Assembly (NCBI GenBank): GCA_012735575.1
Contig: JAAYGY010000054.1
Span: 3,109-67,108, forward strand
From: Clostridiales bacterium
GTDB lineage: Bacteria > Bacillota > Clostridia > Caldicoprobacterales > UBA3941
DNA: 64,000 nucleotides
Direction: 5' to 3'
Below, in pieces: positions 9,852-58,035 of this stretch. The notes beneath the pieces are model-generated. The model saw only the letters and a list, made by a program, of their open reading frames with translations. It did not search any database and was not told the origin of the DNA. Positions within the stretch are counted from its first letter, which is position 1; each line of letters starts with the position of its first letter. A program made the translations under genes and the position numbers.

Positions 9852-9857
9852 TAACAA

Positions 9858-9884
9858 CAATCGCCAGCATCAAGCTGGCGATTG
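9858..9884. terminator. Bidirectional rho-independent terminator between convergent operons
   Basis: Perfect 11-bp stem caatcgccagc / gctggcgattg with a 5-nt loop. It sits between the stop at 9851 (+) and the stop at 9937 (-). Confidence 0.7.
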
Positions 9885-9936
9885 TTAGTCTTTAATTTGA
9901 TCCAGGTTTTATAAATTTCAGAATACGAAGAGGAAA

Positions 9937-17211: not shown

Positions 17212-18739
17212 ACTCCATCTCTAGTTTTTTAACCTTTCTCTTGTAGGATATGGTAGTAGATAATATCATTATTACTCCTGTAGCTAAAGCTATGGACACC
17301 CACCATTGGGAGGCTCTTTCAGGTTTTTGTTTATCTTCTTCCTGTTCTTCCCTAATATCACCAATAATAGGTTTTTCTATATTTGTTGCCAACTCTACTG
17401 TTTTTGTGTATACTTCTCCATACTCATCCTCATAAGTAATAGTCATAATCCCTTCAGATCTTCCATATTTACCTGCATCATCACCTGATACTTCGGCCTT
17501 TGAATATTCATCTTTTCCCATATCTAACGTCCCAAAGAAGGCATAAATTTCTGTACTATTTGATGTACCAGGCTCCATGTTTCCAAGGTAGGCACTGCCA
17601 TCAGGAATTACTCCCGGCATCTCAAGGGTACATCGTACATTATATAGAGTACTTTTTCCCATATTAAAAATATTCATGGTAATTGGCAGACTTTCTCCTG
17701 CATTAACACTAGATGGAATATTGACTTCATCTACCTCCAGTCTAAGAGGCTGTCTTACCTCCACCAATATCTCCTCGTTCATGGTATAGGCAGTGCGTGC
17801 ACTATCTTCATATTCTATGGTTAGTAGGATTTTATGGGGGCGGGGCTCTGCATCTAATCGAGTTCTCATCTTTAAGTTAAGCTCATGAGTCTTATTATTT
17901 GATATCTCATCTATATAAAATGTATTAGTCTTGTCATTAGGAAGAATATCATGAGTCTCGCCTTTATATGTTACCTTTATATTGTATGTGCTCCAGTCTT
18001 CCTCTGTATTTTTAAGCCTTACCATTACATCAAAACTATCCCCCGCCATGACCATCTGAGGACTAACCTTATATTCATCCATGATAATTTTAGGCTGGGG
18101 TCTTGGCTCAGGTTCTTCTTCAGGCTCCTGTTCAGATTCAGATGATTGGGGATCTCTTCCATCAGTAATAGTCACATACACAGTAAAAGTCTGCTCTACC
18201 TGTTCTATAATATCCTTAACTTGTTCCTGTTCCTTTGGACTAGATTCATCAGTTATTTCCTCTGGATCTTTGGATTGCTCCGTAACATTTGGTTTTTCTT
18301 TTCCCTCTGATTGGACTAAGAAACTAGTATTTATTATTACAGGATAAGTTCCATTTATCCGGTTTGCTGATAAGGGCAGTTCAAGACGAACCAGAAAACT
18401 TGGTACTTTGGCCTTCCCACCATTTACAACATTATCAGCTAAAGAAACGGTCATCTGATAGTTGGAAAAGGAAAAAGGTGAATCCAAGGGGTCCCCCAGG
18501 TCAGGTGTAACAGTTATCTTCTCATCAACTATTTTATTGGCTCCTTCATATATTAAGGGTAGTATAACTATTGCTTTTCCATCCTTGACATCAGGTCTGT
18601 AACCCTGTGAATATGAATTTATCATGCCCTCATATACATTCTTGTTATCGATTGCCAGTTTATCTCCTGCAGCGTATGTAACTGGAATATAGGCTGTCAG
18701 AATAATAACAGTTAATATAATAGTAGCCACTTTTTTCAT
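17192..18739 (-). CDS. Secreted, C-terminally membrane-anchored beta-rich protein with acidic linkers (unknown function; CARDB/COG1361-like by appearance)
   Basis: Signal peptide MKKVATIILTVIILTAYIPVTYAAG. Repeated Ig-like-looking modules are separated by E/Q/P-rich linkers (SESEQEPEEEPEPRPQP). C-terminal TM WWVSIALATGVIMILSTTI followed by KRKVKK. It is sandwiched between the ATPase and the FtsX permease, overlapping both. Confidence 0.7.
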   Translation of the reverse strand: MKKVATIILTVIILTAYIPVTYAAGDKLAIDNKNVYEGMINSYSQGYRPDVKDGKAIVILPLIYEGANKIVDEKITVTPDLGDPLDSPFSFSNYQMTVSLADNVVNGGKAKVPSFLVRLELPLSANRINGTYPVIINTSFLVQSEGKEKPNVTEQSKDPEEITDESSPKEQEQVKDIIEQVEQTFTVYVTITDGRDPQSSESEQEPEEEPEPRPQPKIIMDEYKVSPQMVMAGDSFDVMVRLKNTEEDWSTYNIKVTYKGETHDILPNDKTNTFYIDEISNNKTHELNLKMRTRLDAEPRPHKILLTIEYEDSARTAYTMNEEILVEVRQPLRLEVDEVNIPSSVNAGESLPITMNIFNMGKSTLYNVRCTLEMPGVIPDGSAYLGNMEPGTSNSTEIYAFFGTLDMGKDEYSKAEVSGDDAGKYGRSEGIMTITYEDEYGEVYTKTVELATNIEKPIIGDIREEQEEDKQKPERASQWWVSIALATGVIMILSTTISYKRKVKKLEMEYGNEDI

Positions 18740-19443
18740 AATCCTTTTTCCTCCCTGTCTACTATTCGTCCATCTTCAATACAAATAATGCGATCTGCCT
18801 TTGCTGCCTTTTCCATATCATGGGTTACCATTAGAATTGTAGTTCCATTTTTTATCGATATATCCCTTAATATATCCGTTATCTGATCTGCATTTTTTGA
18901 ATCAAGGTTTCCCGTAGGTTCATCCGCAAAAAGTATATCAGGATTACCTATTATAGCACGTGCGATAGAAACTCTTTGCTGCTGCCCTCCTGATAATTCC
19001 CTGGGTTTGTGATGCAAATGCTTTTCAAGGCCGAATAAGGTTAGGAGCTGCTTTGCTCTTTCCATCCTTTCCTGTCTTCCTACGCCCTGTGCCATTAAGG
19101 GTAAAGCTACATTTTCTTGTGCTGTCAGCATGTCAAAAAGATTAAAGGATTGAAATACAAAACCAATATGCTTAAGCCTGAAACCAACCAGCTGTTTTTC
19201 ACTCATCCTATGAATACTCCTACCCTTTATAATAATACGCCCGGTACTGGGAGGCTCAAGACCTGCTAGAAGTGAAAGCAAAGTAGACTTTCCGCTGCCT
19301 GATGTGCCAACTATGGCAACAAACTCACCAGGCATAATATCTAAATCCACTGATGTCAACGCCTTTAGTGGGATTTTTCTAGTCCTGTATATTTTGGTTA
19401 AGTTCCGTACGACTATTATGGGTTCTAATTTTTTGCTATCCAC
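18736..19443 (-). CDS. MacB/LolD-type ABC transporter ATP-binding protein
   Basis: Walker A GTSGSGKST, signature LSGGQQQRVSIARA and Walker B ILFADEPTGNLD. The GTG start overlaps the upstream stop (TAGTG). Confidence 0.9.
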   Translation of the reverse strand: MDSKKLEPIIVVRNLTKIYRTRKIPLKALTSVDLDIMPGEFVAIVGTSGSGKSTLLSLLAGLEPPSTGRIIIKGRSIHRMSEKQLVGFRLKHIGFVFQSFNLFDMLTAQENVALPLMAQGVGRQERMERAKQLLTLFGLEKHLHHKPRELSGGQQQRVSIARAIIGNPDILFADEPTGNLDSKNADQITDILRDISIKNGTTILMVTHDMEKAAKADRIICIEDGRIVDREEKGL

Positions 19444-20099
19444 TATCTCACCACCGTCAATCTTCCTCTGTCCATCTCACAAACGCTATCGCATAGCTCT
19501 TCAATATCAGCCGGGTTATGGCTTGCAAGCAATATGGTTTTACCCTGATCTTTAAGCTCTTTTATAAGCTGTCGCATCTGGAACACTCCATGTTTATCCA
19601 GACCATTAAAAGGCTCATCCAAAATTAATATTCTAGGATCTTCCATTATTGCCTGAGCAATGCCTAAACGCTGGCGCATGCCTAGAGAATATTTGGCTAC
19701 AGGCTTTTTCATATGGGGATCAAGTCCCACCCGTCGTATAGCATCAGTAATTTCCTTACTGGTTATTTTCCGCTTAAGAGAGGCCAGAATTTGAAGATTC
19801 TTCATACCTGTGGCATAGGGCAAAAAACCAGGGGTTTCAATGATTATTCCCATATCTTCAGGAAAATCCACATCCTTGCCCACCTGCTGATAATCTACCA
19901 GTATCCTTCCCTTTGTAGGACGGAGAAAGCCACATATGCATTTGAATAGCACCGTCTTTCCACTGCCATTGTTACCCACTATGCCATGGATTTTTCCCTC
20001 TTCAAAATTATGATTGACATCATGTAATACTTCCTCATCTCCAAAGGATTTATATACATGCTGCAGACTAATGGCTATATCTCTCTTATTTTTATCCAT
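19443..20099 (-). CDS. ABC-2-type ABC transporter ATP-binding protein
   Basis: Walker A GNNGSGKTV, signature YSLGMRQRLGIAQA and Walker B ILILDEPFNGLD. The start overlaps the upstream stop (TAATG). Confidence 0.9.
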   Translation of the reverse strand: MDKNKRDIAISLQHVYKSFGDEEVLHDVNHNFEEGKIHGIVGNNGSGKTVLFKCICGFLRPTKGRILVDYQQVGKDVDFPEDMGIIIETPGFLPYATGMKNLQILASLKRKITSKEITDAIRRVGLDPHMKKPVAKYSLGMRQRLGIAQAIMEDPRILILDEPFNGLDKHGVFQMRQLIKELKDQGKTILLASHNPADIEELCDSVCEMDRGRLTVVR

Positions 20100-20995
20100 T
20101 AGTTTAGTCCCCCTGAAAAGTTAAAATTGTATTTTCTTATGGACAATAAGGCTAATAAAAGACACATGGATATTAATACAACATATATAAAATAAGTTTG
20201 CCATAATTTAGGTAATAGATCATAACCAAAATTATGCATATGATATGTTGCATGCTGAAGGGGTGACGCCCATCCCGTGACTACATTGGCTATATATAAT
20301 TGATCTTGGCTAAGTTTTAGTATCTCCTTAAACAACTGGGGATTTAATAGAAAACCATATAAGTTAAAAATAAAAACGCTTAATATCCCCCAAAAATGGC
20401 CTTTTCTTAGATTCATGACAAACATTATAAGCACACATAATAGAGTATATAATAGCATCAATAAAAAAATGGTAACCATACATTCATATGGGGTGGACAT
20501 CTCCATAGTCTTTACGGAACTAGGAAGAGCTACAACCTGTCCGGCTCCTGAATAACCTAGTATAGCAGCCGTTTCTGACCACATATTACCCACATAGGCA
20601 TTTTTAGCACATATTACAATGGTTGATACTAATATAAAAACCATGTATATAAAAACTGCTAGACATATATAAAGAATCTGTCCCATCAGCCATTTTAATC
20701 TACTGGTACGCATAAGAAAATAAGGGACTCCGGCATCCAGGAATGGCATATCAGAGAATAGGAGAATAAGTAACAATGAAGCTAGAAGTATGGAGTTGCT
20801 GTCACCGAATGTCCATACAAAGGGTTCTATAACCTGTATAATGGTATTATATTCGTAGCTAAACCGGATAGCATTATCCGTCAAAAGAAAGCATAATACA
20901 AAGGCTAGACCAAAGGTGATTATTATACGAGGATTTTTTCTCCATCTTCGAAAGTTGTACCAGCATATCTCCCAAATCTGATATAGTCCCAGCAT
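20099..20995 (-). CDS. Polytopic membrane protein, putative ABC-2 permease subunit
   Basis: 298 aa with ~6-7 hydrophobic segments. It is translationally coupled on both sides (TAATG overlaps). I recognise no motif. Confidence 0.65.
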   Translation of the reverse strand: MLGLYQIWEICWYNFRRWRKNPRIIITFGLAFVLCFLLTDNAIRFSYEYNTIIQVIEPFVWTFGDSNSILLASLLLILLFSDMPFLDAGVPYFLMRTSRLKWLMGQILYICLAVFIYMVFILVSTIVICAKNAYVGNMWSETAAILGYSGAGQVVALPSSVKTMEMSTPYECMVTIFLLMLLYTLLCVLIMFVMNLRKGHFWGILSVFIFNLYGFLLNPQLFKEILKLSQDQLYIANVVTGWASPLQHATYHMHNFGYDLLPKLWQTYFIYVVLISMCLLLALLSIRKYNFNFSGGLN

Positions 20996-21744
20996 TAGCC
21001 ATCAATCCTTCCCTCTATTATGACATCGTTTATCAGCATTACTATTATGTTAAGTAGAATAAGCAGCAGTATAATCCCCCAATCTCCACCAATCCAAAAT
21101 TCCTTAGGTGCTAACCATTCCTTGGGATTGATAACATATATACCGTGGAAATAGCGTTCTGACAGGAAAACCAGCACATAATAAATAACAAAAGGAGCCG
21201 CATAAGCCATATATTTGCTCAAAGTTACATTGGCAAGGAGAGAGCCTAGGGAAGCCCATAAAGACCCGCACAAAAAATACACTAGGGTTTTCCTTACTAG
21301 AACATTTAAGGGAGATATAGCCGTGGGATCAGCAACTTCCAAGGGACTGTACACCAGATATGCAATAAAGTATGATAGCAATACGCCTGTTGCCAGGGAT
21401 AGGCCTCCCGATATACCAGCACCAAGAACTTTACCCTTTATATAAGCCCTTTTGTCACACTTTATAAGATAAGGCATTATAAACCCGCTACTGTATTCTT
21501 CCAGGAAGGCCACTGTATAGGGCAATGTACAAAGGATGGGAACAACCATAAGGACAATGTCTGATGACAGGGCCTTAAATATTAGCTGACCATGATAATA
21601 GGAGCTTAAACCAATATCAATATCCCCGGGAAAAATCAGCTCTCTCCCTGCACCTATAGCTATTACTATAACCATAGCAGTACAAGTTAAAAAAAAGGGT
21701 AAGTTATATATGGCTCTTTTTAAATCCACTTTTATTTCATTCAC
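20995..21744 (-). CDS. Polytopic membrane protein, putative ABC-2 permease subunit
   Basis: 249 aa with ~6 hydrophobic segments. It is the first gene after the BlaR1-like gene, with a 100-nt gap in which I see no obvious terminator. Confidence 0.65.
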   Translation of the reverse strand: MNEIKVDLKRAIYNLPFFLTCTAMVIVIAIGAGRELIFPGDIDIGLSSYYHGQLIFKALSSDIVLMVVPILCTLPYTVAFLEEYSSGFIMPYLIKCDKRAYIKGKVLGAGISGGLSLATGVLLSYFIAYLVYSPLEVADPTAISPLNVLVRKTLVYFLCGSLWASLGSLLANVTLSKYMAYAAPFVIYYVLVFLSERYFHGIYVINPKEWLAPKEFWIGGDWGIILLLILLNIIVMLINDVIIEGRIDG

Positions 21745-21844
21745 TATACTTTTAGTCCTTTCACGTCCATATAAGTTTCCCTATAATCTCGCCTATATCT
21801 CGCCAGTTCAACAAGCTAGTTCTATTAAGTATCAAATCTTTTCA

Positions 21845-24505
21845 TTAATACCCCTTAGATATATCAATAATGCTGCCGTCAATGGCGTTAATAACCACAT
21901 AAGGGTATAGACTATCTGGAGCGGTCACCTGTGAATTACCATCATTATCTTTATAATTAAGATTTTCATAGCCTAAAAAAGTCCATGCAGGCACCATACG
22001 GTAAGCTCCAGGCCGATCCTTGATTCGTATACGCATCAGCCCAAGACATATATCGGTAATATTTATCTCCCCTGAGTCTATATCATCAGAGCTACCGAGC
22101 AATTTGCTTATTGTATATTCCATCTTTACCTGCTTTTTGAATATTTCTATCGCCTCTTCTAAAGTAATTACAGGTACATTGCTGTTTTCCACCTGTACTT
22201 GTTCCATGGGAGAATCCCAGTACAGACTAGTTATTACATCATTTTGCACAGTTACCCTCAGTTGTTCATAGGGGTAAGTATGCGCATACTGATCACTGGC
22301 GCTACTATCTAAACTGCTAAATGGAGCTACATCATGGGCTGCAATTCCTTCATATGAAGGAACAAAAGTCATTCTATACCCATAGACTTCATCTTCATTT
22401 TTATCAATGAAATTTTTATCTAGATTCCCTTCTATATCTACAACTTCATTAATTCCATCTTCTTTTAGTATATCTGATGATGCACTACTAAAATCAGATA
22501 TCATCATACCTGGTAAGGGCTTACCTAAAGTATAACAGTCTGATAGCACCATATTGGTTATACCCATTTGAGCTAGAGTGTCCTGAACCATATCAATGGT
22601 CTCCTCTAGGGTCAATTTTGCAGGTCTGGAATCAAGAGAATCCCAGGTAGGTATACTTCCCTCATTGCCTATAAAACTGGATCCCATAGAAAAATGAGCA
22701 TAGTGGTAGATGTTTTTTGTGGTATCCTGATTAAATACGGTAATCCTTGCATTATAATCAAGCACTTTTGAATCAAGAATTATCATATCTGAATCATAAT
22801 AGTATTTTTGTAACTCCCTTGACTCTTCATCATCCTCATTAAATTCATTTCCCAATATGGCCATATTTTCATAATATGCTCTAGGTCTAAATGTCCAATC
22901 GGTTTCTTTTACCTCAATTGTATTTGGAGCATCCTGATATATATTTTCAAATTCTTCAATGCGCTTTTCAAATTCTGCCTTAACCATCTCAGCGATAGCC
23001 TGGTCTCCACCATAGTATTCCAGTATAGCCTGCTCGTTGCTAATAAACTGCTTGTGCTTTATAATCTCCTCCTCTAGATCTGCCTTACTAAAGCCTACTT
23101 TAGGTTCATAGGCAATGCTGCCTTGAAACAATACTTCTGCCATAGCTTTAACCTGATCCATGTCAATATAGCGAGGCTTAACCTCTACTACAGGCATATT
23201 ACCGGTGGGTAGTGTAACCTCTGCATTAATATTAATAGTTACTCTTTCATCTGCACCTTGGAAAGATTCACTATACTCTGAAAAATCAACCTGCCTGTTT
23301 TGATTAGCGTTGCTTCCCTCAGAATCTGCTTTTGATTGAATAATTTTCTCCAACTTGCCATCGCTCTTGCCTATGACAACAGGTCCTTCCGGTGTAGGCT
23401 GACAGGCTGTGGTAAAGCATACAATACCTATTATCCCTACTAGTAAAAGGGATATGGTCTTTACTGACATTCTGGTTTTATTGGGCTTAAACAAACCCCT
23501 AATTCGTTTTTCCGCCGCAATACGCCCTTTGCCAGCTCCCATAGCTAATCCGCTAAATGCAAAGGGATTATTAGTATTAAATAGACTAATTAAAGTTTGA
23601 GCATAGGCTCTTCGACTTTCAACACCAATTTTTTCAATTACCTCTGCATCGCAAGCTGTTTCCATATCATCAATTATCAAAGAGTTTGCAATGTGAACAA
23701 TAGGGTTAAACCAATATACAACTTTTAATATGGTTAGCAAAAATCTGACAAGATGATCTCTTCGTTTGTAGTGGCTTAACTCATGTAAAAAAATAAATTC
23801 CAGTTCCTTGTCAGTACGGTCTTTTATTAGTCTTGTTGGCAGCAGTATAAGAGGACGAAACCAAGCCGTAAGTGCAGGAGTCTTTATTATATCCTGAAAT
23901 ACCAGGGGGATATCCTTTTTTATTCCAAGCCTTTCTTTGCATTGGGATAATATGTTATAAGCCCTACTATCCCAAAGGCCTTCACTTTTCTTTCTAATAG
24001 AGTAAATACCTCCATAACCCCTTATTACACGACTTAAAGCGACTAATACTCCCAACACCCATATCCTAAGTAGAATAGTCTTTACATTTATCTTAATAAT
24101 TTTTTCTCTTGGTTTAGAGTCAAAATTCCTCTCATTATTTCCCAATTCCTTCACATCAAGCCTGGTTTCTTTTATGGGATAACTTAATTTTGTCTTGTTT
24201 AAATCTGTAAATATACCATTATCATAGGCACTAGCCCTTGTACCATTAGATATATGGTCTTTAGATTCAATATGTTCTACTGTTTTGTTAAATGCTTCAT
24301 GAGATAGAGGGAGAATATTAAAAAATGAATACCCTATTTTAATGTTTACTGGTATCAACAGGCGTATAATCAGCAGAAACCATATAGCATACTGAAATCT
24401 GGCAGACATTCGTGAACCTAAAGCTCTTTTGATTAGAAGAATCACTGCAAAAACCAAACTAGCTGATATATTTGCCCAAATTAGATCTACTATAAAAGTA
24501 TTCAT
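21845..24505 (-). CDS. BlaR1/MecR1-like M56 sensor metalloprotease with an unrecognised ~515-aa extracellular C-terminal domain (paralog A)
   Basis: N-terminal TM helices. The zinc motif FLHELSHYKRRDH (HExxH, aa 241-245) is followed by WFNP, as in peptidase M56. A TM helix at aa 347-366 ends in FTTAC. Then comes a large hydrophilic domain ending ...GAYRMVPAWTFLG...VINAIDGSIIDISKGY. The gene overlaps blaI-like A by 4 nt. Confidence 0.85.
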   Translation of the reverse strand: MNTFIVDLIWANISASLVFAVILLIKRALGSRMSARFQYAIWFLLIIRLLIPVNIKIGYSFFNILPLSHEAFNKTVEHIESKDHISNGTRASAYDNGIFTDLNKTKLSYPIKETRLDVKELGNNERNFDSKPREKIIKINVKTILLRIWVLGVLVALSRVIRGYGGIYSIRKKSEGLWDSRAYNILSQCKERLGIKKDIPLVFQDIIKTPALTAWFRPLILLPTRLIKDRTDKELEFIFLHELSHYKRRDHLVRFLLTILKVVYWFNPIVHIANSLIIDDMETACDAEVIEKIGVESRRAYAQTLISLFNTNNPFAFSGLAMGAGKGRIAAEKRIRGLFKPNKTRMSVKTISLLLVGIIGIVCFTTACQPTPEGPVVIGKSDGKLEKIIQSKADSEGSNANQNRQVDFSEYSESFQGADERVTININAEVTLPTGNMPVVEVKPRYIDMDQVKAMAEVLFQGSIAYEPKVGFSKADLEEEIIKHKQFISNEQAILEYYGGDQAIAEMVKAEFEKRIEEFENIYQDAPNTIEVKETDWTFRPRAYYENMAILGNEFNEDDEESRELQKYYYDSDMIILDSKVLDYNARITVFNQDTTKNIYHYAHFSMGSSFIGNEGSIPTWDSLDSRPAKLTLEETIDMVQDTLAQMGITNMVLSDCYTLGKPLPGMMISDFSSASSDILKEDGINEVVDIEGNLDKNFIDKNEDEVYGYRMTFVPSYEGIAAHDVAPFSSLDSSASDQYAHTYPYEQLRVTVQNDVITSLYWDSPMEQVQVENSNVPVITLEEAIEIFKKQVKMEYTISKLLGSSDDIDSGEINITDICLGLMRIRIKDRPGAYRMVPAWTFLGYENLNYKDNDGNSQVTAPDSLYPYVVINAIDGSIIDISKGY

Positions 24506-24882
24506 TTTTCATTCTCCTTATCAGCAAGCTCATCAAAGAGTTCTTTTAGTTCCTGCATATCTTCTGAGGATAAGCTGCTTTCCTTAATCATGCATACTAA
24601 TAGATCTTTTAAGCCTGATCCGGATATTCGATCTAGTATGCTTTCACTTTCTGCACGTATGCATTTATTTCGATCAATAGCTGGATAATAGAATTTATCC
24701 CGGCCCAGCATTTCATAACGGGCAACGCCCTTATCACATAGTCGTTTTAAGTAAGTAGAATAGGTAGTATATTTCCAGTCCAGCTGATCTCCAACGGCCT
24801 CTATAACACCTGACAAGGTAAGGGGAGATTTCTCCCATAGAGTATTCATCAATATCCACTCAGGCTTTGTTAAGGTTATCAT
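24502..24882 (-). CDS. BlaI/MecI/CopY-family winged-helix repressor (paralog A)
   Basis: 126 aa. LTKPEWILMNTLWEKSPLTLSGVIEAV...WKYTTYSTYLKRLCDKGVARYEMLGRDKFYYP is typical of the Penicillinase_R family. GAAGGAGGAAG RBS. Confidence 0.85.
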   Translation of the reverse strand: MITLTKPEWILMNTLWEKSPLTLSGVIEAVGDQLDWKYTTYSTYLKRLCDKGVARYEMLGRDKFYYPAIDRNKCIRAESESILDRISGSGLKDLLVCMIKESSLSSEDMQELKELFDELADKENEK

Positions 24883-24907
24883 TGTCTTCCTCCTTCTTGA
24901 TTAAAGA

Positions 24908-24944
24908 GTTGTAAAAGCTATGACTTAGTCATAGCTTTTACAAC
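24908..24944. promoter_or_regulatory. Perfect 17-bp-arm palindrome upstream of blaI-like A (candidate operator and/or inter-module terminator)
   Basis: GTTGTAAAAGCTATGAC-TTA-GTCATAGCTTTTACAAC, 25 nt upstream of the blaI-A start and 62 nt downstream of the blaR-B stop. It contains outward TGTAA/TTACA elements. A TTGACA -35-like hexamer on the minus strand lies at 24997-24992. Confidence 0.55.
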
Positions 24945-25005
24945 TGACTATTAAGTCTTGTTACTTATGTTGTAGTATCTGCCCTCAACCTTGTCAAGCA
25001 CTTTT

Positions 25006-27657
25006 TTAGTAACCTTTATTTCCATCTATAATACTTCCATCTATAGCATTAATTATGGCATAAGTATTGATAGACTTATCTCCCCCAGGACCTGGTACTG
25101 GTGATAGATAACCTTTGTTCAATATGTCCAGATTCTCACCGACCAGCTTTTCAGTTCCTTCAAATATCCATACTGGTACCATACGATAAGCACCAGGTCG
25201 GTCCTTGATAAGCAAACGCATCAGACATAGGCGTATATTTGTTATATTGATTTCACCTGATTGGATGTTCTTAATGACTTCATTGTAATCATTATGCTTG
25301 GGGTCATACCGGGACAGCTTACCAATGTTATACTCTAGCTGCATCTGTTTTTTGAATATGGCTACCGCTTCTTCAAGATCAATGACGTCTACATTATCAC
25401 TTTCAACATCCACAATCTCCATAGGTGAACTCCAGCTAAAGTAGGTAATCATGTGGTTATTGACATTCACATTCAGGCTTTCATGAGGATAGATATGGAT
25501 AAACTGATCATCATGGCTGCCTAGAGTAAATCTTTCCATATTATAAATAGCAACTCCTCCATATGTGGGAACAAAGGTTAAGGAATAGGTGTATACATCC
25601 TCCCCTTCGGCAGGTTCTGGTATATTTGGCCTCTTTCCTCCTCCGGCAGCCATGCTAAGAGCTGCTTTGGAATTTTCAGGAATAGGTGTGTAATAATCCT
25701 TGTAATGACCGTAAGCTCTAATGCTATCCAATCTCATGTTCCTTATTCCCATCTCTATAAGGGCATTTTCTACCATATCAATGACCTGGTCTTTTGTCAT
25801 CTTCATGGGGCGTGAATCAGCAGGGTCCCAGGTTGCAAAATTTACATCATGCATTCTAGATCCCATATCAAAGGCTACTCCATGAGAATGGTAGTTACCT
25901 TTTTCATGATTATAGGCCTGTATCATAGCATGATAATCGTCAATCCTAGTTACGGCAATAAAGGTTTCTGCATCATATAACTGCTCAGCTGTAATATCCT
26001 CTTCTGGGCGTACACTGGCATCAGCCTCCACCTTATCCATATAATATAACTGTGGATGAAAATTCCAATCTGTTTCTTTAAGAGTCACTTTCTCAGGCGC
26101 GATAGAATACATTTCCTCATACCTTGCAATACGTTGCTGGTAATCAGCTTTTATTTCCTCCACAGCCTCATTATTCCCCCCATATCCTTCCAGTAAGGCT
26201 GCCTCATTGCTCATTTCTTTTTTAAGCTTTATAATCTTATCTTCCAACTGGGATTTGGTCATAGCTATTTGAGGTTCATAGGCAACATTTCCACGAAACA
26301 ATACCTTAGTAATATCTTTAATCTGATCCATAGGTATGTTGTATGGTTTAACCTCAACTACCGGTACATCTCCTTCAGGCACAATTACTTCTGCATCTAT
26401 GTTAACAGTAACCTTCTTATCTGCGCCAGCAAAAGAGTCTGTATACCTTTCTACCAAAGAAGTCTTGTCTTTTCTTTCTTTACCTTCTTTACTGGATCTT
26501 ATTGCTTCCTCCAGTTTACTGCCGTCCTTGCCGATAACTATAGGACTGTCGGGAGTTTTCTGACAAGCGGTAGTAAACCCCATAACTAACATCAAAGTTG
26601 CTAGAAATATGGATATACAAGTCAAAGTTTTGGAATTTTTTTCGAGCTTTACGATCCGTACAATCCTCTTCTTCAGTCTGGACTTATTCCTATACAGGGA
26701 GGTAGTAATAGATGGAATGGGTATGCTTGTATTTTTTGAAATGCGAACAGCCTCTATCAGTGACTGGCCGTATATTAATGGATCACATTTACTTAGATGT
26801 TTTACCACCATTTGATCACAGTAAAGTTCAACATCTTCCTGATACAGGCTATATGCTATCCATACCAATGGATTAAACCAGTGAATAGCCTTTGCCAGTA
26901 ACCAGATATAGTTAATAAGTATATCGTGCCTCTTTATATGATAAACCTCGTGAAATAGAATACTGTTTAAAATGTCCCTGTTCATGTTTTCAATAAAAGA
27001 TGCTGGTAAAAGAATGTTTGGTTTAAAATATCCAAATACAACAGGTGTCTTTACAAAATCACACTCTATTAGTGGAATATACTTTTTTATTCCAACACTT
27101 GCCATATGGTCTTCTTTCATCTGTATTATATTTTTATGGGTAATTGGTTTACAAAACCTAAGCCTGCGCCTAAACGATATTGCTTTCCTTATAGTAGCTA
27201 ATAAAATAGATATGGTACCTGTAATCCATATAAATGAAACAATCATCCATAGGGAAAAATTGTCTTTTTTTGCTCCTTGATTGACTTCTTTCAATAAAGG
27301 TTTCCCTTCATGTGAAGAAGGCAAAAGGTTTTTATGGTTATCAGTTTGACTGACCTGTCTATAAACCGATATATTCCTATTAATCATATTGGTAGAATCT
27401 AAATATAATTCATTAGTATTAGCCAGATCAGTTGCTGACGGTTCCAAAGTAGATGTCCCAGGTAATAATTCATATATTTGTACAGGGCTATATACGGTGA
27501 AAGGCAGACATAGGCGCAATAATACCATTCCCCAAAGAATTAGCATAATTGCTGGGCTAATTCTCTTTGCCATGCTCCTTCTAATTATTATGGCTACAAC
27601 TATCATCAAAGATGCCATAAGGGAAATATGAAATAATACTTTTAATAGGGCAGGCAT
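25006..27657 (-). CDS. BlaR1/MecR1-like M56 sensor metalloprotease with the same unrecognised extracellular domain (paralog B)
   Basis: Zinc motif LFHEVYHIKRHD (HExxH, aa 236-240) followed by WFNP. A TM helix at aa 343-363 ends in FTTAC. The C-terminal domain is colinear with paralog A, for example VTVNIDAEVIVPEGDVPVVEVKP, LKETDWNFHP and GEINITNIRLCLMRLLIKDRPGAYRMVPVW. Confidence 0.85.
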   Translation of the reverse strand: MPALLKVLFHISLMASLMIVVAIIIRRSMAKRISPAIMLILWGMVLLRLCLPFTVYSPVQIYELLPGTSTLEPSATDLANTNELYLDSTNMINRNISVYRQVSQTDNHKNLLPSSHEGKPLLKEVNQGAKKDNFSLWMIVSFIWITGTISILLATIRKAISFRRRLRFCKPITHKNIIQMKEDHMASVGIKKYIPLIECDFVKTPVVFGYFKPNILLPASFIENMNRDILNSILFHEVYHIKRHDILINYIWLLAKAIHWFNPLVWIAYSLYQEDVELYCDQMVVKHLSKCDPLIYGQSLIEAVRISKNTSIPIPSITTSLYRNKSRLKKRIVRIVKLEKNSKTLTCISIFLATLMLVMGFTTACQKTPDSPIVIGKDGSKLEEAIRSSKEGKERKDKTSLVERYTDSFAGADKKVTVNIDAEVIVPEGDVPVVEVKPYNIPMDQIKDITKVLFRGNVAYEPQIAMTKSQLEDKIIKLKKEMSNEAALLEGYGGNNEAVEEIKADYQQRIARYEEMYSIAPEKVTLKETDWNFHPQLYYMDKVEADASVRPEEDITAEQLYDAETFIAVTRIDDYHAMIQAYNHEKGNYHSHGVAFDMGSRMHDVNFATWDPADSRPMKMTKDQVIDMVENALIEMGIRNMRLDSIRAYGHYKDYYTPIPENSKAALSMAAGGGKRPNIPEPAEGEDVYTYSLTFVPTYGGVAIYNMERFTLGSHDDQFIHIYPHESLNVNVNNHMITYFSWSSPMEIVDVESDNVDVIDLEEAVAIFKKQMQLEYNIGKLSRYDPKHNDYNEVIKNIQSGEINITNIRLCLMRLLIKDRPGAYRMVPVWIFEGTEKLVGENLDILNKGYLSPVPGPGGDKSINTYAIINAIDGSIIDGNKGY

Positions 27658-27658
27658 T

Positions 27659-28045
27659 TTACTCGCCCCCCTTACCTTTCAAATCCTGAATCAGCCTTTC
27701 CAGTTCATCAAGGTCGTCATCAGTAATTTTTTCGGCTTCTACAAATCTAGCAATCATATGAGGTAAATTTCCGTAATACTTGCTAATTACACTGTTGGCC
27801 TTATCAGCAGCATATTCTTCCCTTGAAACAATAGGGTAGTAACTGTATGATCTCCTGTTTCCTTCTTTGACTCCTACCAGGCCTTTTTCCATAAGCCTAT
27901 TTAGGTATGTATTTACGGTTTGACGTGACCAGTTAAGTATATCCTTAACTTCCTTTTGAATTTTCATGCTGGTGGATACACCATCCCGCCATAGGATTTC
28001 CATGATAATGCTATCTGCCTCAGTTAAATCAGGATATTTACTCAT
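27659..28045 (-). CDS. BlaI/MecI/CopY-family winged-helix repressor (paralog B)
   Basis: 128 aa. LTEADSIIMEILWRDGVSTSMKIQKEV...WSRQTVNTYLNRLMEKGLVGVKEGNRRSYSYYP. The stop lies 1 nt before the blaR-B start. GGGGGG RBS. Confidence 0.85.
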   Translation of the reverse strand: MSKYPDLTEADSIIMEILWRDGVSTSMKIQKEVKDILNWSRQTVNTYLNRLMEKGLVGVKEGNRRSYSYYPIVSREEYAADKANSVISKYYGNLPHMIARFVEAEKITDDDLDELERLIQDLKGKGGE

Positions 28046-28068
28046 ATTAGTTGGCCCCCCTAAAAAAC

Positions 28069-28125
28069 TTTCGACGTAACACTTACGTCTATAATAAGAC
28101 TACAATATTACGTCGAAAATGTCAA
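28069..28125 (-). promoter_or_regulatory. Candidate promoter/operator region of the blaI-B/blaR-B pair
   Basis: Dyad GACGTAA-CAC-TTACGTC at 28073-28089. A third copy, TTACGTCGAAA (28108-28118), is the inverted repeat of TTTCGACGTAA (28069-28079). On the minus strand there is TTGACA (28125-28120), a 17-nt spacer containing the distal half-site, then a weak -10 TAGTCT. Confidence 0.5.
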
Positions 28126-28129
28126 GGGG

Positions 28130-29128
28130 TTATTTCTTTGGAAATAAGGATTTTCTCACAATCACCATGGTTTCCATATTAACGTTTTGCACCTTATCCC
28201 CTTTTATCTTTTTTAAAAGGAGTTCCATAACTTTTTTACCTAATTCATAATGGGGTACATGGACAGTGGTTAAAGGGGGTGTCAGATAACGGCTAAGATT
28301 TAGATTGTCAAATCCCACTACTGAAACATCATAAGGTATTTTCAGCATTAGATCATTGATAGCAGAATAAACAGCAGGGGCTAGGTAGTCATTGCCAGTA
28401 AAGATGGCAGTCGGCCGTTTATAGCGGGTTAGCATTTCTATGACGCTTGAATAGGCATAATCCGGAGTATCACCATCTATGTAGACAATATCCGGGTCAA
28501 ATTCAATACCATGATCTGATAATACCTTACGGTAGGCTTGTAATCTATAGTCTGGTTCCTTTGAAGACCTTAATCTTCTTGCAGTCAAAAAACCTATTCT
28601 TCGGTGACCGCTATTAACAACATATTCCAATAGCTTGACTGCTCCTGCATAAAGGTCCAGGTTCACCAATATAATTTCAGGATCAAACCCCTTATATCCT
28701 TCATTACCAACAAACACTGTTGGTATTCTATACCTTGTAAACCTATTAACATCCTCTATTGCTAGCTTATCTGTAGACATAACAATACCATCGAACTGAC
28801 GCTTGATAAGTTCATCAATATACTCTTTATCCTCCCGGGCATTTAAAATGGAGATAATGTAACCATTTTTAAAGGCCTCTTCCTCCATCCCTAAAGCCAG
28901 TTCTGCAAAATATGGGTTGGAAATACCGTTGGTAACCAGGGCTATCTGATTAGTTTCACGGGTCTTTAGACTTCTTGCCACTAAATTAGGTTTATACCCT
29001 AATTCATCGATAGCCTTCCAAACCAATTCTCTAACTTCCTTACTAACCCCTGGCTTGTTATTAATAACATTTGATACTGTTGCTACTGAAACATGTGCCC
29101 TTTTAGCCACGTCTTCTCTAGTTACCAT
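28130..29128 (-). CDS. LacI-family transcriptional regulator
   Basis: The N-terminal HTH is VTREDVAKRAHVSVATVSNVINNKPGVSKEVRELVWKAIDELGYKPNLVARSL. It is followed by a periplasmic-binding-protein-like effector domain. Confidence 0.9.
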   Translation of the reverse strand: MVTREDVAKRAHVSVATVSNVINNKPGVSKEVRELVWKAIDELGYKPNLVARSLKTRETNQIALVTNGISNPYFAELALGMEEEAFKNGYIISILNAREDKEYIDELIKRQFDGIVMSTDKLAIEDVNRFTRYRIPTVFVGNEGYKGFDPEIILVNLDLYAGAVKLLEYVVNSGHRRIGFLTARRLRSSKEPDYRLQAYRKVLSDHGIEFDPDIVYIDGDTPDYAYSSVIEMLTRYKRPTAIFTGNDYLAPAVYSAINDLMLKIPYDVSVVGFDNLNLSRYLTPPLTTVHVPHYELGKKVMELLLKKIKGDKVQNVNMETMVIVRKSLFPKK

Positions 29129-47553: not shown

Positions 47554-48501
47554 CTATCTGTAAAAATCATGATTTCCTATTGTGGTTATATATTGTCTGT
47601 TTTTAACAATCCAAGTTCCAGCAGCTTTTTTAGGATTAAAGAAATATAATGCATCTCCAACGGGTTTGCTGCCAAAATAAGCTTCTTCTGCTGCTTTTAA
47701 GGATTCTGATCCAGGATTGTTGTAAATGGTACCATCCTGTACAGGACTAAACTGAGGTATTCCCTGATAATATTCAAAAATTACACTATAGATGGTGTTA
47801 GGGAATTGACTGGAATTTACCCTATTTATAACAACATTGCCCACGGCTACTTTTCCCTTATAAGGTTCTCCTGCGGCTTCTGCATGAATGATTCTTGCCA
47901 GCCAAAAGATGTCATCTCTTTGTTTAGCTGTTAGACTACTTCTGCTTGTAGCAGCCTTAGTAGCAGGTTTGCTGTTGAACAGGGCATTTTGAGTTTCCGA
48001 TCCTGCTATCCCGTCAATCCTAAGTCCATGATCTGTCTGAAAAGCAATAACTGCTTTTTCCGTAACATGTCCATAGTATCCGGTAGCAGTTCCTTTAAAA
48101 TATCCCCTTGCTTTGAGAGCATTTTGAAGATCCCTAACCCTTTCATTACGCATTCCAAAGTACAACAGACCAGTATATCCACCTGTGCTGCTCTCATAGA
48201 GTGCTTTCTGGGTCTGCTGACCTGCTATTCCGTCTACAGCCAGGCCATAATCCTTTTGAAATCTTATGACTGCATCTTTTGTTATAGTTCCATAGTAACC
48301 TGTAATATTGGGATAGGTAAAATATCCTTTGTTTTTTAGAGCCTGCTGTAGTCGGGATACTGCCTGCCCTCTGCTGCCAATCTTAAGTAATGGGTAAGAT
48401 GCAGCTTCAACCTCCATAGTAGGTTCTACCATAAAACCTATAACTAATAATATAGTAACTACCATGGTAAGTATAGTAGTTACCCTCCTCTTTTGACCCA
48501 C
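47554..48501 (-). CDS. SleB-type cell-wall (spore cortex) hydrolase with two peptidoglycan-binding domains
   Basis: Signal/TM VTTILTMVVTILLVIGFMV. There are two PG_binding_1 repeats (GSRGQAVSRLQQALKNKGYF...VDGIAGQQT; NERVRDLQNALKARGYF...IDGIAGSET). The C-terminal hydrolase is IFWLARIIHAEAAGEPYKGKVAVGNVVINRVNSSQFPNTIYSVI. Confidence 0.8.
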   Translation of the reverse strand: MGQKRRVTTILTMVVTILLVIGFMVEPTMEVEAASYPLLKIGSRGQAVSRLQQALKNKGYFTYPNITGYYGTITKDAVIRFQKDYGLAVDGIAGQQTQKALYESSTGGYTGLLYFGMRNERVRDLQNALKARGYFKGTATGYYGHVTEKAVIAFQTDHGLRIDGIAGSETQNALFNSKPATKAATSRSSLTAKQRDDIFWLARIIHAEAAGEPYKGKVAVGNVVINRVNSSQFPNTIYSVIFEYYQGIPQFSPVQDGTIYNNPGSESLKAAEEAYFGSKPVGDALYFFNPKKAAGTWIVKNRQYITTIGNHDFYR

Positions 48502-48648
48502 AAAAATCCCCCTTTATATGTATTATGTTAAGTTGACGTAATACATTATATGGGGGAACTATCTCTTGGTCAAATCGGTTAAGCTGTGAACCTGTCTTTT
48601 ATTACAAAAATATGACACAATTGTTAAGTCAACTTAATAGAATTCAAA

Positions 48649-57947: not shown

Positions 57948-58035
57948 GTATCTATCCCCCCGAATTTATTATCTAATCCATGCTTATTTAATTAGAATCA
58001 CTGGAAGGTTTATCTTCCAGTGATTCTGTAGACAT

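Follow-up and report, generated by a model that had tools for sequence, protein, structure and literature searches.

Two tandem BlaI-BlaR-like modules with probable family-specific promoter operators, and a species-specific leader palindrome, in a Clostridiales bacterium

Introduction

In the MecI and BlaI systems of Staphylococcus aureus and the BlaI system of Bacillus licheniformis, a winged-helix repressor of the PF03965 family is encoded just upstream of an M56 sensor protease, and in the bla and mec operons the operators, often arranged as two dyads, overlap the repressor's own promoter. The same organization is found twice, in tandem, in a 64,000-nucleotide (nt) stretch of DNA from a Clostridiales bacterium (GCA_012735575.1, contig JAAYGY010000054.1, positions 3,109 to 67,108; hereafter the window, numbered from its first letter), in which two repressor-sensor pairs, module B (blaI-B and blaR-B) and module A (blaI-A and blaR-A), follow each other on the minus strand, and a long perfect palindrome occupies the leader of blaI-A. 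The original prediction for this locus took the palindrome as the operator of BlaI-A and a different set of repeats as that of BlaI-B, which would leave two insulated circuits with completely different operators. Here, the locus is compared with related loci and with the described systems.

A single BlaI dimer binds a TACAnnTGTA arrangement, and the mecA operator OPmecA ATAAGACTACATTTGTAGTATATT (PMC1935004) is comparable to the published box TACANNTGTA. The latter is also the cop box of CopY/CopR, which has been refined to RNYKACANNYGTMRNY, and two operators have been proposed over the -35 and -10 elements; importantly, a 10-bp palindrome alone does not predict binding (PMC7253601). In Clostridium thermocellum, DNA affinity purification sequencing (DAP-seq) and electrophoretic mobility shift assays (EMSA) of BlaI_0696 and BlaI_1845 revealed a strict requirement for two inverted-repeat pairs per target, bound by four protomers, and each of these paralogs has a distinct motif and a tiny autoregulatory regulon (PMC8457756). 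Furthermore, the majority of 'BlaR' proteins are devoid of the beta-lactam domain (PMC13492132).

Two probably autoregulated modules in tandem

The locus is best described as two tandem, autoregulated BlaI-BlaR-like modules, each probably controlled through a family-specific operator at its own promoter, with the palindrome acting as a leader hairpin and not as the primary operator. We assign this sequence-based reading a probability of roughly 60%. The PF03965 (Penicillinase_R) match spans the full length of both BlaI-A and BlaI-B, and the closest solved structures are MecI (1okr) and BlaI (1sd4), with phmmer matches that cover residues 4-117. Unlike the bla/mec sensors, neither of the two sensors has a penicillin-binding transpeptidase domain, as their C-terminal 530 amino acids match DUF6034 (PF19499; E 2e-52 and 9e-53) and not PF00905, and they fall far below the cut-off of the NCBIfam BlaR1 models (163 bits versus 400). 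Since DUF6034 replaces the transpeptidase domain, a beta-lactam is not the expected signal. In this respect the modules resemble CenIR of Clostridioides difficile, which pairs a BlaI-like repressor with an M56 sensor without a transpeptidase domain; CenR, however, ends in a short unstructured C-terminus, whereas the window sensors carry a DUF6034 domain of about 530 amino acids (PMC13492132). DUF6034 was not mentioned in the literature searched. CopY belongs to the same fold family and shares the core box of the A family, but, unlike CopY, the window repressors have no C-terminal CxC metal site and each is paired with a protease.

By analogy with the bla and mec systems, an envelope signal would activate each M56 protease, in which an extracellular DUF6034 domain would stand in for the beta-lactam-binding domain, and the activated protease would cleave its own repressor. 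The Asn-Phe scissile bond of S. aureus BlaI (N101-F102) is not kept in either repressor: the aligned residues are C97-M98 in BlaI-A and R-F in BlaI-B (G-F in relatives), and the P1' Phe is retained in BlaI-B only.

The predicted module B promoter and its probable operators

All strings quoted in the original prediction are found at their given positions, including the dyad GACGTAA-CAC-TTACGTC (28073-28089) and the inverted 11-mers TTTCGACGTAA (28069-28079) and TTACGTCGAAA (28108-28118), the latter of which sits, on the minus strand, within the 17-nt spacer between TTGACA and TAGTCT. This spacer element had been described as a third copy of the repeat; it is indeed present, but it does not stand alone. 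It is the left part of another dyad, GACTACAATATTACGTC (28098-28114), which is imperfect, fits the 17-bp dyad pattern with three mismatches and is here called OP1. The perfect dyad is called OP2.

Seven independent loci from independent metagenomes and genomes (the window, L001, L003, L094, L097, L098 and L099), whose BlaI-B homologs are 62-84% identical, were compared upstream of the repressor gene. Three blocks are invariant, namely ACG.A in the 17-nt spacer, TGTAGTCT at the -10, and GACGTAA-N3-(T/A)TACG(T/G)C just downstream; the bases between them, the flanks and the dyad spacers vary. Among the 106 loci compared, the exact dyad GACGTAA-N3-TTACGTC was found at B-type promoters only, and in none of about 90 unrelated loci. 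In addition, the right half of OP1, TTGTAGTCTTAT, corresponds to the mecA half-operator ATGTAGTCTTAT, and TGTAGTCTTAT, invariant in the B family, is identical to the half-operator of S. aureus mecA (compared with PMC1935004).

The B repeats behave like a real operator, and the proposal that the dyad and the inverted 11-mer serve as one is supported by the conservation of both sequence and position in the seven loci. The assignment to BlaI-B is well supported, and we infer the DNA binding itself from these patterns: BlaI-B would repress its own predicted promoter, TTGACA-17-TAGTCT, via two dyads, with OP1 (GACGTAA-N3-TGTAGTC) lying over the spacer and the -10 and OP2 (GACGTAA-N3-TTACGTC) over the predicted transcription start. 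Unlike the bla/mec operators, the main half-site of module B is CGTAA/TTACG, and its centre is 3 nt instead of 2 nt long. The C. thermocellum motif GTCTAT-N5-ATAGAC shares its 6-N5-6 layout with GACGTA-N5-TACGTC of module B (PMC8457756), but the half-site sequences differ, and the window modules, known here from sequence alone, are adjacent and co-directional.

Two further arrangements were seen among the B-type loci. In L094-L096, a 76% identical BlaI-B homolog (gene 5001-5387 in L094) lacks an M56 gene as a neighbour, which makes it an orphan repressor. A HEPN/nucleotidyltransferase pair comes next, on the opposite strand, and the OP2 of this homolog has one mismatch (TTACGGC). In L099 (9090-9243), a third type of BlaI paralog lies beside a B-type module, and the dyads upstream of it, ATGTCT-N10-AGACAT and ATCTTAT-N4-ATAAGAT, point to further operator diversification among BlaI-BlaR(DUF6034) modules.

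The predicted module A promoter and its probable operator

For blaI-B, 82 homologs were recovered. BlaI-A has few relatives. Orthologs with upstream DNA are available from L001/L002 (83% identity), L003-L006 (79%) and L008 (80%), together with the more distant L009-L011 (56-61%). The string CTTGACA-N17-ACTACA..AG is invariant in six A-family loci, and its 17-nt spacer is unconserved. Where the window has the A box ACTACAACATAAGTAAC, which is unique within the 64 kb, the distant members carry ACTACAATTGTAGT or ACTACAATAGTAGT, and these provide the full classical MecI/CopY box (ACTACAnnTGTAGT; TACANNTGTA) precisely over the -10 hexamer TACAAT. In essence, the A-family box ACTACAnnTGTAGT corresponds to the mecA operator GACTACATTTGTAGT, and the 20-bp palindrome of L011, TGCACTACAATTGTAGTGCA, may be compared with OPmecA. 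In the window, the left half ACTACA lies on the -10, and ATAAGT takes the place of TGTAGT in the right half.

BlaI-A has the same recognition helix LDWKYTTYSTYLKRLCDKG and the same wing in the window as in the orthologs without the palindrome; the distant members differ at two helix positions. As the palindrome is absent from these orthologs but the DNA-reading parts of the protein are unchanged, the simplest reading is that BlaI-A binds 24976..24960, which makes this box, and not the palindrome, its likely operator. BlaI-A would repress its own promoter, TTGACA-17-TACAAC, via this MecI-like box on the -10 (ACTACAAC-ATAAGT), the right half of which has drifted in the window's clade. TAAG-N8-CTTA was considered as an alternative dyad; it occurs in the window and L003, is absent from L001 and L008, and was dropped. 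A plasmid collection was also searched for closer BlaI relatives, but the matches were all below 40% identity and of no use for footprinting.

The leader palindrome

The palindrome is real and longer than the 17-bp arms originally claimed: its arms (24907-24925 and 24927-24945) are 19 nt long and 100% complementary around a 1-nt centre. It is the longest perfect inverted repeat of the window, and 40 first-order Markov simulations of the window produced longest perfect arms of 10 nt on average and never more than 15 nt. The 17-nt arm is single in the window, the sole other match being at 379-395 with three mismatches. Eight other assemblies of the same species (L007 and L100-L106) carry the palindrome unchanged, which rules out an assembly artefact. 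Over 3.4 kb, L100-L106 show at least 99.8% identity with the window and are nearly clonal.

Outside the species the element was not found, either upstream of the A orthologs (L001-L006 and L008) or in the distant L009-L011. Searching the GTDB representative genomes (596 Gb), a set evidently without the source species carrying this sequence, with the arm 17-mer gave 66 single matches in unrelated taxa, about the chance level, and no partner arm. The arm 19-mer had 16 single matches in JGI metagenomes, none palindromic and several representing one stretch that is conserved among related contigs. Membership of a dispersed palindromic repeat family, similar to repetitive extragenic palindromic (REP) sequences or miniature inverted-repeat transposable elements (MITE), was rejected, given the one copy in the window and no palindromic copy in either collection. 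An Rfam scan over 24400-28400 returned nothing beyond a chance-level match inside blaI-A. At the corresponding place, L003 has a weak 8-bp hairpin, AGCTTATG...TATGAGCT, which shares AAAGCT.ATGA with the palindrome core and suggests that the palindrome may be a quasi-palindrome that was extended and perfected.

As RNA, the palindrome folds into an 18-19 bp stem, and the leader has a minimum free energy of -30.9 kcal/mol, with a z-score of about -6 to -7 (-5.9 for that fold). A conserved leader hairpin in the A orthologs was rejected, because the leaders of L001, L003 and L008 fold no better than shuffled sequence (z about 0). A promoter within or downstream of the palindrome was likewise rejected, as there is no acceptable -35/-10 pair and only 25 nt, including the Shine-Dalgarno sequence, are left before the ATG. 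With no room for a promoter after it, the palindrome would be transcribed from the predicted A promoter, in addition to any read-through from module B. The palindrome is probably a recently acquired, transcribed element downstream of this promoter.

Other perfect, AT-rich hairpins with 13-14-nt arms and poor U tails occur at gene ends in the window, one between convergent genes (9856-9886, tail UCUUUAAUUU) and one between co-directional genes (57994-58027). Transcript ends without a U tract may be common in the source organism.

Divergence and possible insulation of the two circuits

The recognition helices are conserved within each family and different between them, with WKYTTYSTYLKRL in A and WSRQTV(N/R)TYL.RL in B. 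The repressors of the two modules are 28% identical and the sensors 36%, and the residues aligned with the scissile bond also differ (C-M in A versus R/G-F in B). The low repressor identity, the distinct helices and the family-specific promoter boxes together indicate that BlaI-A and BlaI-B very probably read different DNA, in line with the original prediction that the paralogs have diverged in specificity. To call their operators completely different is an overstatement, however: the family boxes do differ, but the right half of OP1 is a mecA half-operator and both window promoters contain the MecI-type half-site ACTACAA/TTGTAGT (24976..24970 on the minus strand and 28099-28105 on the plus strand). 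The ACTACAA 7-mer alone is not rare (16 copies versus about 10 expected).

The term insulated is likewise too strong. The reading heads, boxes and scissile residues of the modules differ, but the modules are co-directional, and a terminator scan found no canonical terminator between them, nor before the downstream ABC genes. Furthermore, the A promoter of L003-L006 is directly preceded by a complete B-type promoter that has both OP1 and OP2 (L003 5820-5890), without blaI-B or blaR-B intervening, which means that a B-type repressor would control module A there. Either the B genes were deleted in these loci, or they were inserted in the lineage of the window. The shared half-site, the tandem layout and the L003-L006 promoter weigh against strict insulation of the two modules.

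Gene layout and features of the locus

From upstream to downstream on the minus strand, the gene order is a LacI-family gene, blaI-B, blaR-B, blaI-A, blaR-A and four more genes (Table 1). Among these four, the 249-aa and the approximately 300-aa (amino acid) proteins matched no Pfam family. The same set follows blaR-A in L003-L005 (L003 9454-12381), with an extra 217-aa gene in between, and this conserved synteny marks the four genes as the probable output of module A. A further operator copy had been suggested upstream of 21744, but the 100-nt gap before these genes (21745-21844) has neither an A box nor a B box, nor a terminator by scan, and neither motif occurs elsewhere in the window.

In some assemblies of the same species, blaR-A is frameshifted or truncated, by a 2-nt AT insertion at about 23435 in L103 and L105 and by a C-to-T change at 23764 that creates a stop codon in L106. 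These independent inactivating changes suggest relaxed or diversifying selection on sensor A.

Elsewhere in the window, a 25-nt imperfect palindrome (48507-48557) lies in the leader of gene 48501..47554 and includes the GGGGGA ribosome-binding site of that gene; it may be a translational or attenuator hairpin. A 3-mismatch match at 48614 and a TTGACGTAATAC string at 48531 were rejected as BlaI boxes because they belong to this unrelated leader hairpin.

Table 1. Features of the two modules and sequences over the -10 of module A promoters. Positions refer to the window.
Feature	Position	Strand	Remarks
LacI-family regulator gene	29128..28130	-	immediately upstream of module B
-35 hexamer TTGACA of predicted blaI-B promoter	28120..28125	-	read directly; present in 6/7 B-family loci
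-10 hexamer TAGTCT of predicted blaI-B promoter	28102..28097	-	17-nt spacer from TTGACA
OP1, imperfect hybrid dyad GACGTAA-TAT-TGTAGTC	28098..28114	-	covers promoter spacer and -10
OP2, perfect dyad GACGTAA-GTG-TTACGTC	28073..28089	-	about +1 to +17, over predicted transcription start
blaI-B, 128-aa BlaI/MecI/CopY-family repressor	27659..28045	-	PF03965, E 3e-29
blaR-B, 883 aa, M56 protease (HEVYH) and C-terminal DUF6034	25006..27657	-	PF05569, E 3e-50; PF19499; motif seen in alignment
-35 hexamer TTGACA of predicted blaI-A promoter	24992..24997	-	begins 8 nt past blaR-B stop codon
Probable BlaI-A operator ACTACAACATAAGTAAC	24960..24976	-	includes -10 TACAAC (24974..24969); left half canonical, right half degenerate
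39-nt perfect palindrome in blaI-A leader	24907..24945	-	about +18 to +56; found in source species only
Shine-Dalgarno AAGGAGG of blaI-A	24889..24895	-	11 nt after hairpin; unpaired in predicted fold
blaI-A, 126-aa BlaI/MecI/CopY-family repressor	24502..24882	-	PF03965, E 8e-26
blaR-A, 886 aa, M56 protease (HELSH) and DUF6034	21845..24505	-	PF05569, E 4e-55; PF19499; motif in alignment
Four genes downstream of module A	18736..21744	-	249 aa, 298 aa, two ABC ATPases (ABC_tran domains)
Sequence over -10, window and L003			ACTACAACATAAGT
Sequence over -10, L001			ACTACAATATAAGT
Sequence over -10, L008			ACTACAGTGTAAGA
Sequence over -10, L009			...ACAATTGTAGT; cut by contig end
Sequence over -10, L010			ACTACAATAGTAGT
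Sequence over -10, L011			TGCACTACAATTGTAGTGCA; perfect 20-bp palindrome

Competing explanations for the palindrome

A leaky role at the RNA level, as a terminator or 3'-end stabiliser, is the most likely function of the palindrome; we infer it from the stable stem and its position between the modules, where the hairpin would curb read-through out of module B and dampen module A. The idea that the palindrome doubles as a terminator accordingly survives only in a weak form. Its stem is very stable, but with 4 U in 8 the tail CUUUAAUC does not reach the criterion of the terminator scan, and the hairpin lies downstream of the only plausible A promoter. An efficient terminator there would silence module A, which means that the proposed role needs a leaky hairpin. 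Further points speak against our overall interpretation of the locus. The A box of the window is only half canonical (ATAAGT versus TGTAGT), and common descent could account for part of its conservation in the four close orthologs. Both -10 hexamers (TACAAC and TAGTCT) are poor, and a consensus promoter scan called neither promoter. Finally, in a near-clonal sample the identity of the palindrome across assemblies is uninformative on selection.

The last point bears on a serious rival, to which we give a real though minor chance, namely that the palindrome has no function and is a recent mutational product, a small leader quasi-palindrome lengthened and perfected by replication template switching that persists in a near-clonal population. 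Its species-specific occurrence and perfect symmetry agree with such an origin, as do the core shared with the weak L003 hairpin and the independent inactivations of blaR-A, which suggest relaxed constraint on module A; with all sampled assemblies at least 99.8% identical, they are uninformative about selection. On the other hand, the homology to the L003 hairpin is no more than suggestive, and a 5' leader hairpin of about -24 to -30 kcal/mol would hardly leave the transcript unaffected. The idea that BlaI-A itself uses the palindrome, as its operator or as an auxiliary roadblock operator with the TTGTAA/TTACAA ends as half-sites, is improbable. In its favour are a perfect symmetry far beyond chance and a position between promoter and ATG, from which a bound protein would obstruct elongation. 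The outer ends, TGTAAAA/TTTTACA, are also similar to the TGTAAT half-sites of the blaZ and blaP operators, and TACAAC is present in three copies, one at the -10 and one in each arm. Yet it is missing upstream of the 79-83% identical orthologs in L001, L003-L006 and L008, in which the helix-turn-helix and wing are the same and the conserved element is the -10 box. The TGTAA..TTACA motifs that were taken to define A specificity point away from each other, about 25 bp apart, and form no TACAnnTGTA unit even with the flanks included, while monomers of the BlaI N-terminal domain bind half-operators weakly (PMC1935004). The window also holds no second copy, and the region upstream of the ABC genes has none either.

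Dimeric regulators and REP-like elements typically have long perfect palindromes, and a LacI-family gene (29128..28130) lies immediately upstream of module B. LacI operators typically have CG-centred half-sites, which the centre of the palindrome does not show. With no other copy in the window and no palindromic copy in the genome and metagenome arm scans, it is very improbable that the palindrome is the site of another protein, such as this regulator or a recombinase, or a copy of a dispersed repeat.

Returning to the leader hairpin with a leaky RNA-level role, a more specific and rather doubtful form of it is that the palindrome is a recently evolved insulator, in which a leaky, U-tract-poor terminator uncouples module A and its ABC exporter from module B read-through. 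If this were true, relatives without the palindrome, such as L003, which wire a B-type promoter onto module A, would offer a snapshot of paralogous modules being rewired from a serial to a parallel arrangement.

Significance

Paralogous BlaI proteins with distinct motifs and small regulons are already known from Clostridia (PMC8457756), as are BlaR-like sensors without a beta-lactam domain (PMC13492132), and the locus otherwise varies a known regulatory system in an expected way. The specific B motif and its association with DUF6034 appear undescribed. That the most eye-catching palindrome of the locus is not its conserved element echoes the caution against calling operators by symmetry alone (PMC7253601). 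For the widespread and uncharacterised BlaI-BlaR(DUF6034) family of Clostridia, the comparison provides a conserved candidate operator, GACGTAA-N3-TTACGTC, together with the hybrid GACGTAA-N3-TGTAGTC over the -10, and for a second, rarer family it provides a MecI-like box; both motifs could be used for regulon prediction and for the design of binding tests.

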